From: Thermoplasmata archaeon
Lineage (GTDB): Archaea; Thermoplasmatota; E2; UBA202; DSCA01
Length of the DNA stretch: 31,369 nt
Assembly: GCA_008297795.1 (NCBI GenBank)
Contig: VBQP01000012.1
Coordinates: 1 to 31,369 of the forward strand
Direction of reading: 5' to 3'
The notes under the pieces were generated by a model. It did not search any database and was not told where the DNA came from. It worked only from the letters and a program-made list of their open reading frames with translations. The position numbers were made by a program, and so were the translations under genes. Of this stretch, positions 6,793-23,482 are shown one piece after another; the stretch's first letter is position 1; every line of letters begins with the position of its first letter.

Positions 6793-6873
6793 GGGCCCGT
6801 AGCTTAGCCAGGTGGAGCGTCTGGCTCATAACCAGATGGTCGCCGGTTCGAATCCGGCCGGGCGCCGGGCCCA
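6793..6873 (+). tRNA. tRNA-Ile2 (CAU, agmatidine-modified type) with a 7-nt duplication in the 3' acceptor strand
   Basis: GGGCCCG acceptor 5' strand, D-arm GCTT/GAGC, anticodon stem TCTGG/CCAGA with CAT at 6827-6829, T-arm GCCGG-TTCGAAT-CCGGC, then CGGGCGC CGGGCCC A. The GGGCCCG...A73 pattern matches archaeal Ile2 rather than Met. Confidence 0.85.
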
Positions 6874-6885
6874 TTTATTATAATT

Positions 6886-8430
6886 TTAATTCTCGTAATT
6901 GAAATATGTTAAATCTAGGTCATGCCAGTCATCGAAATCGTTCATGCCATGGGAGCCATCTGAGTAGTCAACAAGTATGTACGTATAACCATAATTCATG
7001 CAACTTTTGTAAGGACGGTATTTCCAGTAATCTAATTTCCACGGGGAGATTGTATCGGGATTGTCCACTCCCGGATTGAATATATCGAGGGTATGCCCTG
7101 TCTCATGCATGAAAACACTGCCATACACTATAGCCCTGTCAACAAAGAACAGTTGCCTGCATTTATCCTCTATGTACTTGGTGGAAATCTGGAATTCATC
7201 TCTTTTTATGGTATATCCGTTGAATCCGCCATCATAAACAACAAGGGCGTAGTGAAATATGCCCTGCCTCCATTCGTTTTCGCCGTTGTGCAGAAAATAT
7301 GTTTCGTAGTAGTCTTCCCTCAGCTTCCTCCCGCTTGTTTTTGCTGCAAATGGTATCATCTCCCCGCCGCCCATGCACCCATCATCAAGATGGTAAACAA
7401 TATTGTGCTTATCATAGGCGGTGCGAAGTACATCCTTTGAACCATCTGGAAGCAAACTGGCAGGTTCACCGTTGGGGCCTGCCTCCATCTGGTCAACTTC
7501 TATGAACAAATCCTTTCTGAATGGGTCGGAGCCCCACTGGGAGGTGAGATATTCCTCCACATTATTCAGCCCATCTTCATCTTCATCGATATTGGTGTGG
7601 TTCTCCCATACAAACGGATCGTAAAGCCATACGTCCTCGACTTCGTCATTCCACCAGTGGAGTTGAAAATAGTGTCCCCATTTCCATTCCCATTCTATCG
7701 GTACGCCATCCCCATCAGCATCTTCTCCCGTGTTATCAACTTCGGGGTCTGTATGGTATATGTTTTCCTCTGTCCAGTAAGGTATGCCATCTCCGTCATA
7801 GTCATTCTGATAAATATCGAACCATATTTCGCAATCCCTGTTGCTCTGGTATATGCTATTGTCATCGCATCCATTTGCTCTCCCGTAGCCGCTCAAATCA
7901 GGGTAACCCCAGTATTCTTCGGGGGAATTAAAATCGTCGCCATACCAGTGTCCTGTCTTTATGCTGTACATGAGGTCGAGGTCGCGGCTTCCGGTATAAT
8001 TGTCGTAGTTGTTATCTATATCGCACAACTTGTCACCAAGCGGGTCGGCATCCCAGAGCTGTATTGTTATATTTACAAATTCTTTATCATCTGGAACATC
8101 GAGCGAGACGCTCCAGTCAGGATTGACATATCTCTGATTTCTCCAGACAGGGCTTTTAAACTCCTCCCCGTTGATGAACACCTTTACATAAAAATCCGGG
8201 TCGCTGAATCTGTCTATCTCGTCGATGGTCCTTCCAAGATATTTCGTTTCCAGTGAGCGAATTTCCTTTATCTTCACGGTGACGGCAACATCATCCAGAG
8301 GGTCGTAATCCTCTGAGGTTTTCGTCGAACTAAAATTATTTCTCCCTTCCTTTTCCAGGAAAGTAAAGCCGTTCAGTGGGGCAGCAATCAATATTGCTGT
8401 TGCAACAGCCAGCAAAGCAATTTTTTTCAT
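6886..8430 (-). CDS. Secreted zinc metalloprotease-like protein with Ca-binding DxDxDG repeats
   Basis: Signal peptide MKKIALLAVATAILIAAPL (start moved to ATG 8430); C2-like N-terminal region (DPDFYVKVFING...QLWDAD); DYDGDGIP, DADGDGVP, DEDEDGLNN repeats; HExxH motif MHETGHTL. Confidence 0.72.
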   Translation of the reverse strand: MKKIALLAVATAILIAAPLNGFTFLEKEGRNNFSSTKTSEDYDPLDDVAVTVKIKEIRSLETKYLGRTIDEIDRFSDPDFYVKVFINGEEFKSPVWRNQRYVNPDWSVSLDVPDDKEFVNITIQLWDADPLGDKLCDIDNNYDNYTGSRDLDLMYSIKTGHWYGDDFNSPEEYWGYPDLSGYGRANGCDDNSIYQSNRDCEIWFDIYQNDYDGDGIPYWTEENIYHTDPEVDNTGEDADGDGVPIEWEWKWGHYFQLHWWNDEVEDVWLYDPFVWENHTNIDEDEDGLNNVEEYLTSQWGSDPFRKDLFIEVDQMEAGPNGEPASLLPDGSKDVLRTAYDKHNIVYHLDDGCMGGGEMIPFAAKTSGRKLREDYYETYFLHNGENEWRQGIFHYALVVYDGGFNGYTIKRDEFQISTKYIEDKCRQLFFVDRAIVYGSVFMHETGHTLDIFNPGVDNPDTISPWKLDYWKYRPYKSCMNYGYTYILVDYSDGSHGMNDFDDWHDLDLTYFNYEN

Positions 8431-13107: not shown

Positions 13108-13213
13108 GGCCCGGGTGGTGTAGCGGTAACATAAGGGACTGTGGATCCCTTGTCTCGGGTTCAAAAGAGAATATGCAGGGAGTTGCATTCTCATGAAAAT
13201 CCCGGCCCGGGCC
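13108..13213 (+). tRNA. tRNA-His(GUG) with genomically encoded G-1 and a 34-nt intron at 59/60 (13166-13199)
   Basis: G-1 + GCCCGGG / CCCGGGC + C73; anticodon stem AGGGA/TCCCT with GTG at 13141-13143. The T-loop is interrupted; removing 13166-13199 restores TTCAAAT. Confidence 0.92.
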
Positions 13214-20209: not shown

Positions 20210-21196
20210 TTGTCAGAGAAGATGCTGATTCCAAAACGCCGCCGTTTAATAAAGGCAGAGGCAGAGACAAACCCCAATTACGGGAAACCGCCAAAAAGAA
20301 GAAGTGTTGAGGAGAGCATAGAAAACGGAGTGGTGATAGTTGACAAACCTGCAGGTCCCACATCCCATCAGGTGAGCGCTTGGGTAAGGGACATTTTCGG
20401 TGTGGAGAAGGCGGGGCATGGCGGCACGCTTGACCCCAATGTGACGGGCGTTTTGCCAGTTGCACTATCAAATGCAACAAAGGCAATTGGCTTACTTCAT
20501 TCTGCAGGGAAAGAATATGTGGCGGTTATGCGCCTTCATGGCGATGCAGGAGAGGAGGAAATAAGGAAAGCGTGCAATCGCTTTATTGGAAAAATACGCC
20601 AGACGCCACCCAGAGAAGCGGCCGTGAAAAGAGTTGAGAGAGAGCGTGAAATTTATTATCTTGATATAATTGAAATAAAGGGGAGAGATGTGCTTTTCAA
20701 GGTTGGATGCGAGGGTGGGACATATATAAGGGTGCTTTGCGAGGATATTGGGAAGGTGTTGGGGTGCGGTGCCCACATGCACGAGTTGAGAAGGACGAGA
20801 AGCGGCATTTTTGAAGAAGAAGATGTCCATACGTTGCATGACATTCTCGATGCGTATATATTCTGGAAAGAGGACGGTGACGAGGAAATAAAAAACATTA
20901 TAAGGCCCATGGAAGATTTACTTTCCCATCTGCCCACTGTGGTTGTAAGAGATTCGGCTGTTGATGCGATATGCCACGGTGCATCACTTGCCCTGCCTGG
21001 CATTCTGCAGGTTGATACGGGCATAGAGAATGGCACAGTTGTTGCAGTCAAAACATTGAAGGGAGAAGGCGTTGCGATAGGCACTTCTCTCATGTCAACA
21101 AGGGAAATGATGGAAAGGGATGCAGGCATTGCAGTTAACACGACAAGAGTACTGATGAGAAAGGGAACATATCCGCCAATGTGGAAGAAAAAATAA
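20210..21196 (+). CDS. cbf5: H/ACA RNA-guided pseudouridine synthase Cbf5 (TruB family, PUA domain)
   Basis: DKPAGPTSHQV, GHGGTLDPNVTGVLP (catalytic Asp), GTYIRVLCED, ELRRTRSG, PUA domain, C-terminal YPPMW. Start may instead be ATG 20222. Confidence 0.96.
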   Translation: MSEKMLIPKRRRLIKAEAETNPNYGKPPKRRSVEESIENGVVIVDKPAGPTSHQVSAWVRDIFGVEKAGHGGTLDPNVTGVLPVALSNATKAIGLLHSAGKEYVAVMRLHGDAGEEEIRKACNRFIGKIRQTPPREAAVKRVEREREIYYLDIIEIKGRDVLFKVGCEGGTYIRVLCEDIGKVLGCGAHMHELRRTRSGIFEEEDVHTLHDILDAYIFWKEDGDEEIKNIIRPMEDLLSHLPTVVVRDSAVDAICHGASLALPGILQVDTGIENGTVVAVKTLKGEGVAIGTSLMSTREMMERDAGIAVNTTRVLMRKGTYPPMWKKK

Positions 21197-21199
21197 AAT

Positions 21200-21284
21200 G
21201 CTGAGGTAGCCCAGCCCGGAACGGCGCAGGCCTGGAGAGCCTGTGGGGCTCTGCCCCTCGAGGGTTCAAATCCCTCCCTCAGCG
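21200..21284 (+). tRNA. tRNA-Ser(GGA)
   Basis: GCTGAGG/CCTCAGC acceptor, G73, anticodon GGA at 21234-21236, long variable arm (GGGGC/GCCCC), T-arm GAGGG-TTCAAAT-CCCTC; begins 3 nt after the cbf5 stop. Confidence 0.95.
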
Positions 21285-21295
21285 TAATTTTTATC

Positions 21296-21751
21296 TCACC
21301 ATATCTCCAAAAGCCTGAGAAGGTCTTTCACTACCTTGGGGCTTACGTCTGAAAAATTGAATTTGGATTTCCCGCCTGACCACTTTATTATTAATTCATG
21401 GGAGTTAATATCCTCATTTGAAGAATCCCTCCTTATTTTTATGGATTTTACCCGATTCCTGTCAATGGAAAAATTGCCATTTGTTTCTGCAATTATATCT
21501 GCAACAGGCATTGAAAAGTATCTTTTATACAGATTTATGCCTGCTGTCATTGTTGCGCCCATGCGTTTGAGGCGCCCTGCTCCCTGCTCTTTCAATTCGT
21601 CTGAAACTCTTTTTGATTCTTCTTTTATCATGCTGCTTGTGAGTTGAGCCACGATAATGCCTTTGTCGGTTGCAACTAAATTGTACATTTTCTGCCCGAA
21701 AACACCACTTTTAACATTAGGGATAACTCCCAGAATCTGTTCTTCATTCAT
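21296..21751 (-). CDS. Hypothetical protein (possible PH-like fold)
   Basis: 151 aa with ATG start and natural-looking composition; beta-rich N- and C-termini (YNLVATDKGIIVA; VKSIKI..ELIIKW). Confidence 0.7.
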   Translation of the reverse strand: MNEEQILGVIPNVKSGVFGQKMYNLVATDKGIIVAQLTSSMIKEESKRVSDELKEQGAGRLKRMGATMTAGINLYKRYFSMPVADIIAETNGNFSIDRNRVKSIKIRRDSSNEDINSHELIIKWSGGKSKFNFSDVSPKVVKDLLRLLEIW

Positions 21752-21893
21752 AGAAATAACCTTAAATGTAACCGATGTGATGTTTTAATATTTGCCATCT
21801 GAAAAATTACCGTGAGATTGCAAAGTGTAGTCAGGTTTTTATTAAAAGAATGGATTGGTGATGGAAGTAAACAATAACTCGACTTCGCAGTTT

Positions 21894-22147
21894 TTATCCC
21901 GTCAATCCAAGCCTTTCTAAATCGTCTTCACTCCATTTTGCTTGTTCTTCTATCATGATTTTCAGTAGTTTCTGAGGAAATGTTTGACTTCCCTTATGAT
22001 ATGAAAGAGTAACTCTTTTCCCATCTGGATGCCTAAAAATTTTATGGCTTCCTGATTGCCTAACTAAAGAAAAAAACCATCTTTTAGTAAAGCCAAAGCA
22101 AATTTTCTTGCCGTTAGACCCCTCAATCTGGAGTAATCTACTGCCAT
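21894..22147 (-). pseudogene. hicA: HicA-family toxin, frameshifted at a T7 run (plus-strand A7 at 22070-22076)
   Basis: Frame 1 from ATG 22147 gives MAVDYSRLRGLTARKFALALLKDGFFL* (TAG 22066-22064); the -1 frame continues SLVRQSGSHKIFRHPDGKRVTLSYH..., with the HicA GSH motif. ATG directly follows the hicB stop. Confidence 0.85.
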
Positions 22148-22402
22148 CTAAACGGTTACAGAAATAAAAGGCTCTGGAGATATCTTTGCTCCTCTCTTTC
22201 TTAGATCTTCTTCGAGTGAGTTTAACTCTCCGCATTCTTCCATATCTTCCAATACAAGTCTGACAACTTCCTCTAAGTTTATTATTGCTTCTTCCCTTGT
22301 ATTTCCCCAAGTATCTCCTCCTCTATCTTTCAGTTCAGGGATGTATGCTGCCCACTTTCCCTCCACTTCTTCAACTGTTGCCTTGAAAGTATATGTCTTC
22401 AT
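22148..22402 (-). CDS. hicB: HicB-family antitoxin (short form, no obvious DNA-binding domain)
   Basis: WAAYIPEL...TWGNTREEAIINLEEVVRLVLE, the partial RNase H fold signature of HicB. Confidence 0.88.
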   Translation of the reverse strand: MKTYTFKATVEEVEGKWAAYIPELKDRGGDTWGNTREEAIINLEEVVRLVLEDMEECGELNSLEEDLRKRGAKISPEPFISVTV

Positions 22403-22478
22403 TATGTTTTTTTATTCATATTCCATATACGTAGCTTTCTGTAAAGGGCATGGCAATGTATTATGAAATTCGCATCAT

Positions 22479-22490
22479 AAAAACAAAAAA
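22479..22490 (-). terminator. Oligo-T terminator after tRNA-Gly
   Basis: Minus-strand TTTTTTGTTTTT immediately after the discriminator base. Confidence 0.55.
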
Positions 22491-22609
22491 TGCGGGCGCC
22501 GGGATTTCCGAGCATGCAGCGAGGAAATATGCCTTGCTCGCAGGGCATGCATTCGAACCCGGGCAGTGAGCTTGGAAGGCTCAAATCCTAACCGCTAGAT
22601 CACGCCCGC
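22491..22609 (-). tRNA. tRNA-Gly(UCC) with a 47-nt intron at 59/60 (22505-22551)
   Basis: Minus strand: GCGGGCG/CGCCCGC + A73; TGAGC-CTTCCAA-GCTCA; CCGGG-TTCGAA|intron|T-CCCGG. Splicing restores TTCGAAT. Confidence 0.92.
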
Positions 22610-22660
22610 ATCAGTAGGCAATATGGAATTTCAATTTAAATAATTTGGTTTTGTCCTGCA

Positions 22661-23482
22661 TCAGAGCATTTTGCTTATTTCCTTGTATCGGTCATAAGAG
22701 AAGACAGGTCCTTCAAGGCATACATATATCTCGCCGCCTGCAATGCAGTGCCCGCATTTTCCCACGCCGCATTTCATTCGTCTTTCTGCAGAAACAGAAA
22801 CCTGAATGTCATTTATTCCCTTTTTCTTCAACTGCTCAACTGTTGGCTCGAACATTGCAGGAGGACCGCATATGACCGCAAATGAATCATCAGGTATTTC
22901 TTCATTCTCGACCAACTGGCTAACAAATCCAACATGTCCGTCCCATCCATCATCTGCCCTATCAACAGTGATTTTAACGTCTGCCATTTCCCTCCATTCT
23001 TCCAATTCGTCTTTGAAAATAATTTCTTCCGGTCTCCTTGCGCCGAAAAAAATGCTTATGTTGCCAAATTTATCTCTTTCGGCAAACACCTCCTTTATCA
23101 GACTTCTCAGAGGAGCAAGCCCTATCCCGCCTGCTATGAAAATCGGGTTGAAACCGTACATCTGCTCTATCGAAAACCCATTTCCGTATGGTCCCCGTAT
23201 CCCCACAATATCGCCTGCTTTCATCCTATGGATTTTTTCTGTCAGCCGTCCCACCCTCTTGATGCAAAGTTCGAAATATTCTTCTGTGGAGGGCGGGGAG
23301 GTGATGGAGATGGGCGCCTCGCCAAACCCGGCAACGCTTATCTCCACAAACTGACCTGGCTTGAATGAAAAATTCTTTTGCCTGCTATCATCAGAAAAAC
23401 GTATCCTGTATAACTTTGTATCATTCGTTAGGGCTTTTATATCCACAAGTTCGGCAGGGGAAGGAAGAAATTCATTATCCAT
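22661..23482 (-). CDS. FAD/NAD(P)-binding 2Fe-2S oxidoreductase (sulfhydrogenase gamma / AsrB / PyrK-like)
   Basis: FKPGQFV, GEAPISITS, IRGPYGNGF, AGGIGLAPLRS, ICGPP, ERRMKCGVGKCGHC..C. Start moved to ATG 23482. Confidence 0.9.
   Translation of the reverse strand: MDNEFLPSPAELVDIKALTNDTKLYRIRFSDDSRQKNFSFKPGQFVEISVAGFGEAPISITSPPSTEEYFELCIKRVGRLTEKIHRMKAGDIVGIRGPYGNGFSIEQMYGFNPIFIAGGIGLAPLRSLIKEVFAERDKFGNISIFFGARRPEEIIFKDELEEWREMADVKITVDRADDGWDGHVGFVSQLVENEEIPDDSFAVICGPPAMFEPTVEQLKKKGINDIQVSVSAERRMKCGVGKCGHCIAGGEIYVCLEGPVFSYDRYKEISKML

Follow-up and report, generated by a model that had tools for sequence, protein, structure and literature searches.

The window analysed here, a stretch of 31,369 nucleotides, carries a tRNA-Gly(UCC) gene on its minus strand at positions 22491–22609, the T-loop of which is split by a 47-nt insert (22505–22551). 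The host assembly (G000) is a metagenome-assembled genome (MAG) of an uncultured Thermoplasmata archaeon and comprises 788 kb in 66 contigs, with a GC content of 44% and a completeness of 70%. The gene measures 119 nt with the insert and 72 nt once spliced. Its 5' exon (22552–22609; 58 nt), which can be read directly, runs from the 5' strand of the acceptor stem to base 59 of the T-loop, and its 3' exon (22491–22504; 14 nt) consists of T60, the 3' strand of the T stem, the 3' strand of the acceptor stem and A73. The acceptor stem is GCGGGCG/CGCCCGC with A73 as the discriminator, the D stem is ATCT/GGAT with a D loop that contains GG, and the anticodon stem is TGAGC/GCTCA with the loop CTTCCAA, in which the anticodon TCC occupies 22576–22574. 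The variable region is 4 nt long, and the strands of the T stem (CCGGG/CCCGG) are separated by 54 nt instead of the usual 7 nt.

The flanks of the gene contain two further elements on the minus strand. A TATA-like box (TTTAAAT) can be read directly at 22634–22640, 25–31 nt upstream of the mature 5' end, and it may be an archaeal promoter. A T-rich run (TTTTTTGTTTTT) follows directly after A73 at 22479–22490 and is likely a terminator; the orthologues of this gene likewise have T-runs downstream. CCA is not encoded. A scan for sigma-70 and terminator consensus sequences was set aside, as it is not meaningful for an archaeon.

In silico removal of 22505–22551 yielded a 72-nt tRNA, the T-loop of which is TTCGAAT as in the original prediction, and ARAGORN identified the spliced sequence as tRNA-Gly(tcc). 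The predicted product is the same in every letter as the intronless gene of a genome from the sister genus (G008), which scores 65.4 bits with the Rfam tRNA model (cut-off, 29 bits). These two results bear out the identity that had been proposed for the gene. The unspliced gene was called by neither ARAGORN nor Rfam, and its partial Rfam match of 25.1 bits lies under the cut-off.

The borders of the insert form a motif of the archaeal splicing type. The exon strand UUCG (22554–22557; T-loop bases 54–57) pairs with the intron strand CGGA (22507–22510), and this central helix is supported by sequence, fold and covariation. At the 3' splice site, a clean 3-nt bulge AAU (22504–22506) separates the central helix from the T stem, and at the 5' splice site AAU (22551–22553) faces the single U 22511, giving a 3x1 internal loop. 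The intron itself contains two stems, namely GCATGC (22550–22545)/GCATGC (22517–22512) and GCGAG (22541–22537)/CTCGC (22523–22519). The central helix, the bulge, the single base facing the other AAT and both intron stems had all been foreseen in the original prediction, and each of them was found in its place. If each AAU is cut behind its second base, UUCGAAU is restored and the intron lies at position 59/60. Three features by which an archaeal bulge-helix-bulge (BHB) motif is recognized are present: a 3' splice site in a 3-nt bulge beside an exon–exon helix, a 4-bp central helix between the splice sites and a canonical mature tRNA upon excision. The strict hBHBh' form, in which both bulges are clean 3-nt loops, is not attained, owing to the U opposite the 5' AAU. 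The minimum free energy fold (−51.7 kcal/mol, z = −2.69) recovers the helices, although with a central helix of 5 bp and a 2-nt 5' bulge. A search for a small RNA inside the intron yielded no Rfam family at the cut-off, and no C/D-box motifs were seen by eye.

Because AAT is repeated, the exact cut (59/60 versus 56/57–58/59) is not readable from the product, and the 59/60 register rests on the motif geometry. TTCG|AAT...CGG|AAT and the shifted forms all give TTCGAAT, and the removal of a real intron at 56/57, 57/58 or 58/59 instead, or without the splicing endonuclease (EndA), would accord with this ambiguity, with the 5-bp helix and 2-nt bulge of the energy-based fold, which are not textbook geometry, and with the alpha'2 EndA of the relatives (see below), which is devoid of the known broad-specificity loops. 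However, 59/60 is the only register with each cut behind the second base of a 3-nt AAU and with the two cuts 4 bp apart on opposite strands, as in the rule of archaeal EndA. The 3' AAU is invariant in the family alignments described below, and 35 of the 37 aligned family members have a base that faces the 5' AAU. This base is U, C, A or G, which indicates that it is conserved as such and does not add a base pair; a C, A or G at this place in the relatives cannot lengthen the helix. To our knowledge, no other tRNA-intron pathway exists in archaea. We regard a different register or route as very unlikely and retain excision at 59/60.

We infer transcription, the exact cut sites and cutting by an alpha'2 EndA; a search for RNA sequencing runs that contain the locus found none. 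The gene would be transcribed into a 119-nt precursor, in which U54–G57 would pair with CGGA at the end of the intron. The resulting helix of 4 bp would be the centre of a BHB-like motif, with the T stem outside it and the intron hairpin inside. EndA would then cleave each AAU behind its second base, and ligation of A59 to U60 by RtcB would yield the T-loop UUCGAAU.

We compared this gene with those of relatives by a DNA search of 40 genomes and by inspection of the loci. Its exons are 95–100% identical to Gly(UCC) genes in 30 or more genomes of the order, and the 5' exon is 98–100% identical to the matching part of the orthologues in the family. Intronless orthologues were found in two genomes of the same genus (G003 and G004), in three others of the same family (G005, G008 and G011) and in many genomes of the second family. 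Orthologues bearing an intron, always at the same site, were found in G001, G006 and G007 and, in the second family, in G021, G023 and G036. The intron of G001, which belongs to the same genus as the host, is 30 nt long. Sister MAGs with the same intron-bearing gene came from Auka vent sediment and a hot spring. Two oddities were seen among the orthologues. The anticodon loop of the G021 gene (contig C33) is CCTCCAA, with C33 in place of the near-universal U33, which may be either genuine or an error of sequencing. In the intron of G023 (JAWAYL010000003.1, 4895–4956), a helix arm is duplicated (CAAGTTGC occurs twice), so that the inner helix can form in two ways, and the splice motif arises in just one of them.

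The original prediction had named another intact Gly(UCC) gene elsewhere as the finding that would speak against it, and no such second gene was found in the 70%-complete assembly. In G006, which is 99% complete, both Gly(UCC) and Gly(CCC) bear introns, these introns are identical, and no match to an intronless copy was obtained. Taken together, the single copy in G000 and the pattern in G006 point to the intron-bearing gene as the working one. This bears on the alternative that the locus is a dead tRNA gene, the T-loop of which received a short mobile or palindromic insertion with an incidental likeness to a splice motif. Such a gene would be in keeping with the lack of a call by the standard tRNA finders and with the presence of several congeners without the insert, but it would not be expected to be the sole Gly(UCC) gene found in both G000 and the nearly complete G006, to keep exons conserved at 98–100% or to retain an intact TATA-like box and T-run.

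The weight of the splice motif itself was assessed by a scan of the whole 788-kb genome. The relaxed motif comprised an outer helix (3 bp or more), a bulge of 3 nt, a helix of 4 bp, a 3-nt loop faced by 0–2 bases and an inner helix (3 bp or more). It gave 53,904 matches in ~3.0e8 position-by-length combinations. A motif this common by chance could well arise in a dead gene, yet the one specific excision at this locus produces a perfect T-loop as in the intronless orthologues, and the chance of hitting the single tRNA-restoring combination is ~2e-4 according to the same scan. In-silico splicing of the motif matches yielded a junction-spanning tRNA in 15 cases, including Gly(tcc) and tRNA-His. 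With the helices also covarying over 34 sequences (see below), a dead gene is very unlikely.

A fragmented MAG of 66 contigs and 70% completeness raises the further question of whether the split gene is an artefact of assembly or binning, that is, a chimeric contig joining two tRNA halves or a piece of foreign DNA. Contigs from three other studies span 22488–22800 with 0–2 differences, carry the gene with its intron and show no joint, which indicates that it is not an assembly artefact, and homologous intron-bearing genes occur in many independent MAGs. The contigs of four DNA runs contain no intronless joint, bearing in mind that contigs drop rare variants. We consider an artefact extremely improbable.

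The anatomy of the gene, the identity of its product with intronless orthologues, its conservation, the covariation and distribution of the intron, and the enzyme genes of its kin, the last three of which are described below, are established in this study. We put the probability that 22491–22609 is a functional tRNA-Gly(UCC) gene bearing an archaeal-type intron at about 90%.

The same window contains another T-loop intron. The tRNA-His(GUG) gene at 13109–13213 (plus strand) has a 34-nt intron at the same 59/60 site and with the same geometry, in which a TTCA/TGAA helix is combined with AAA opposite a single A and a clean AAT bulge. Unspliced, this gene gives a truncated 31-bit Rfam match, and ARAGORN recognizes it as tRNA-His after in-silico splicing. 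The original prediction had spoken of a 'second' T-loop intron in tRNA-Gly(UCC); the word holds for the window, in which this intron is the second after that of tRNA-His, but not for the tRNA itself, which has one intron only. The His genes of the second family have 29-nt introns at the same 59/60 site. Within G000, the Gly and His introns have the motif in common and little likeness in sequence.

Other tRNA genes of G000 are also interrupted. Canonical 37/38 introns are present in Gly-GCC, Leu-UAA and Glu-UUC. According to the motif scan, Glu(UUC) has two introns (C2:18–139); two each were also noted in Arg(UCU) (C27:~7270–7412) and Trp(CCA) (C52:22002–22144), and Pro(UGG) possibly has a 17-nt D-loop intron (C5:~130–220). 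In total, ~22 tRNAs were detected in this 70%-complete assembly. The window also carries a tRNA with the anticodon CAU at 6793–6866 (plus strand), for which the Rfam alignment indicates a non-standard pair at acceptor position 2:71.

At lower window coordinates than the tRNA-Gly locus, a gene for a Cbf5/TruB-type pseudouridine synthase (20210–21196, plus strand; DKCLD, TruB_N, TruB_C_2 and PUA domains) stops 3 nt short of tRNA-Ser(GGA) (21199–21285). The Cbf5/TruB family can make pseudouridine 55 of the T-loop in archaea; the position of this gene beside tRNA-Ser(GGA) is probably a coincidence. The interval between tRNA-Ser and tRNA-Gly (21286–22488) contains a HicA-toxin-like ORF (21897–22310, minus strand; PF07927, E = 6e-8) and two ORFs without a family. 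The contigs of the three other studies match perfectly through tRNA-Gly and diverge beyond its 3' end (at 22481 or 22488), which indicates that this interval is strain-specific, and it may represent a small island bounded by tRNA genes.

To follow the intron across the order, we built a covariance model (R1) from 13 intron-bearing T-arms. R1 matched 38 of the order's 39 genomes, at most 13 times in any one of them, and none of 112 genomes from other orders of the class (E ≤ 1e-5). In a phylum-wide sample, it was found in one further family only (two of three genomes). In a model-guided alignment of 34 distinct sequences, which was fitted to the model and therefore favours structure, 92% of the cells pair as opposed to 79% after shuffling; the slid controls, in which pairing falls to 56% or less once the partner is moved, and a compensatory pair are clear. 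Double-sided changes were seen in 10 of the 15 pairs. T-loop base 57 and its partner in the intron form GC in 18 sequences, AU in 12 and GU in one, and the central helix pairs in 99% of the cells, with compensatory GC/AU changes at its fourth pair.

When 37 R1 matches were cut at the same place, ARAGORN recognized a tRNA in 35, and the restored tRNAs belong to at least 10 families (Gly, Arg, Glu, Met, Pro, Gln, Ala, Lys, His and Ser). A homologous intron lies at the same T-loop site of tRNA-Arg(CCG) in G034. In G021, a segment of 62 nt, comprising the T-arm plus the intron, is identical in tRNA-Gly(UCC) and tRNA-Arg(CCU). A copied family, as described for Thermoproteales, is marked by introns that recur almost unchanged at one position in tRNAs that differ in identity, and the sequences indicate that this T-loop intron family has been copied to the same site of many tRNA genes in the order. 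It also appears, from its distribution, to have been gained or lost between close relatives. The orthologues with and without the intron, the compensatory changes and the tRNA-His case thereby all support the T-loop intron at 59/60 that had been predicted for tRNA-Gly(UCC).

The enzymes expected to process such introns were sought in the host and its relatives. The ligase RtcB is encoded in G000. EndA (PF01974, PF02778) was not found there, an absence that is uninformative in an assembly of 70% completeness; it is present in all 12 of the same-family relatives, including all four congeners. In 36 of the 40 relatives, EndA is encoded by a single ORF of 318–362 aa (410 aa in one genome) with two tandem PF01974 domains, and apart from duplicate copies in two genomes, no further EndA paralogue was detected among the 40 relatives searched. 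Judging from these sequences, the EndA of the relatives is of the alpha'2 architecture. The best solved match of the EndA of the order is the fused M. kandleri enzyme (5X89), and in both families the catalytic repeat is collinear with the loop-less M. jannaschii EndA and contains the Tyr/His/Lys triad. CSL, ASL or L3 inserts are absent from the EndA of the relatives at the ARMAN-2 and crenarchaeal loop sites. Of the hallmarks of broad-specificity EndA, namely two genes, a three-unit gene or an active-site insert, none was found in the relatives.

The N-terminal repeat of alpha'2 EndA is normally non-catalytic. By eye, that of G001 (P0001; L031:1037–2068, minus strand) appears to retain Tyr, His and Lys in the places of the triad (residues ~100–150), and that of G036 (P0002) is without the triad His.

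The architecture of this enzyme is of interest in view of what is known about its substrates. Relaxed non-canonical introns are efficiently removed only by (alpha-beta)2, epsilon2 or loop-bearing EndA, and the presence of a loop in EndA tracks tRNA gene disruption (PMC5829648, PMC6379350, PMC4033280). The loop-less alpha'2 class is efficient on strict motifs only (PMC5829648, PMC6379350), and the A. fulgidus alpha'2 enzyme is reported to be able to cleave a full-length pre-tRNA at a BHL motif (PMC6379350). Either the 3x1 loop is canonical enough for this class, or the EndA of the order is broader than its architecture suggests.

Introns at 59/60 have been documented in ARMAN-2 (PMC3239211). 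The present case resembles them in the T-loop insertion point, in a BHB-type motif formed outside the anticodon loop by T-loop bases and the 3' end of the intron and in the oversight of the genes by standard tRNA finders. However, the EndA of ARMAN-2 is a three-unit epsilon2 enzyme that bears a specific loop, and in-vitro cleavage was demonstrated there, whereas the kin of our host have a loop-less alpha'2 EndA and splicing is deduced from sequence. An inner helix is lacking in the ARMAN Cys intron, which is of the hBH type, but exists in ours, the relaxation of which is confined to the 5' bulge.

A second parallel is found in Crenarchaeota. Introns at 59/60 in Thermoproteales were reportedly described by Sugahara et al. 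2008, and non-canonical and multiple introns in crenarchaeal tRNAs, above all those of Thermoproteales, for which intron transposition was proposed, are said to have been reported by Sugahara et al. 2008 and Fujishima et al. 2010, works to which PMC4033280 and PMC4090602 refer. Common to Thermoproteales and the present order are a lineage-specific rise of introns outside 37/38, including 59/60, near-identical introns at the same site of unrelated tRNAs and a patchy occurrence among close relatives. The crenarchaeal enzyme, however, is an (alpha-beta)2 EndA with a Crenarchaea-specific loop, whereas the hosts here are Thermoplasmata with alpha'2 EndA, and the expansion is centred on one site and one recognizable intron family.

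M. kandleri is similar in being a euryarchaeal-grade lineage that combines a relaxed non-anticodon intron, the D-loop HBh' intron of pre-tRNA-Glu(UUC), with a loop-less EndA (PMC5829648). In that species, such an intron occurs once, and the (alpha-beta)2 enzyme, encoded by two genes, is inefficient in cutting it (PMC5829648), whereas in this order a single-gene alpha'2 enzyme exists alongside up to 13 model matches per genome. Like the canonical euryarchaeal 37/38 introns of the hBHBh' type, the present intron has two 3-nt loops 4 bp apart, and EndA followed by RtcB would process it, but it lies in the T-loop instead of the anticodon loop and its 5' bulge faces an extra base. In the literature that we searched, we found neither a Thermoplasmata host combining loop-less alpha'2 EndA with such introns nor an order-wide concentration of tRNA introns on one site.

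Taken alone, the tRNA-Gly(UCC) locus is ordinary for archaeal tRNA biology, and this kind of intron is already known. It belongs to an intron family that occurs throughout the lineage and was mobile in recent times, and it is the pattern at the level of the lineage that merits specialist attention. For annotation, the consequence is that standard finders miss an essential decoder of GGA/GGG and many other tRNAs of the order, and the MAGs of this group will therefore appear poor in tRNAs as long as T-loop introns are left out of the models.

We give about even odds to the broader proposal that this order has spread a single T-loop (59/60) intron family with a conserved relaxed 3x1 5' site over tRNAs of at least ten amino-acid families, and that its sole EndA, a loop-less alpha'2 enzyme, processes these sites efficiently. 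If this is true, the rule that ties the proliferation of relaxed introns to (alpha-beta)2, epsilon2 or loop-bearing enzymes would fail here, and the extra base, which is conserved, would represent a novel solution on the substrate side for enzymes of the alpha'2 type. The order lends itself to a test, in nature, of whether the architecture of the endonuclease and the disruption of tRNA genes evolved together, as has been proposed. A clean system for the study of tRNA intron spread is likewise at hand, because identical introns occur in unrelated tRNAs and their presence varies within a genus.
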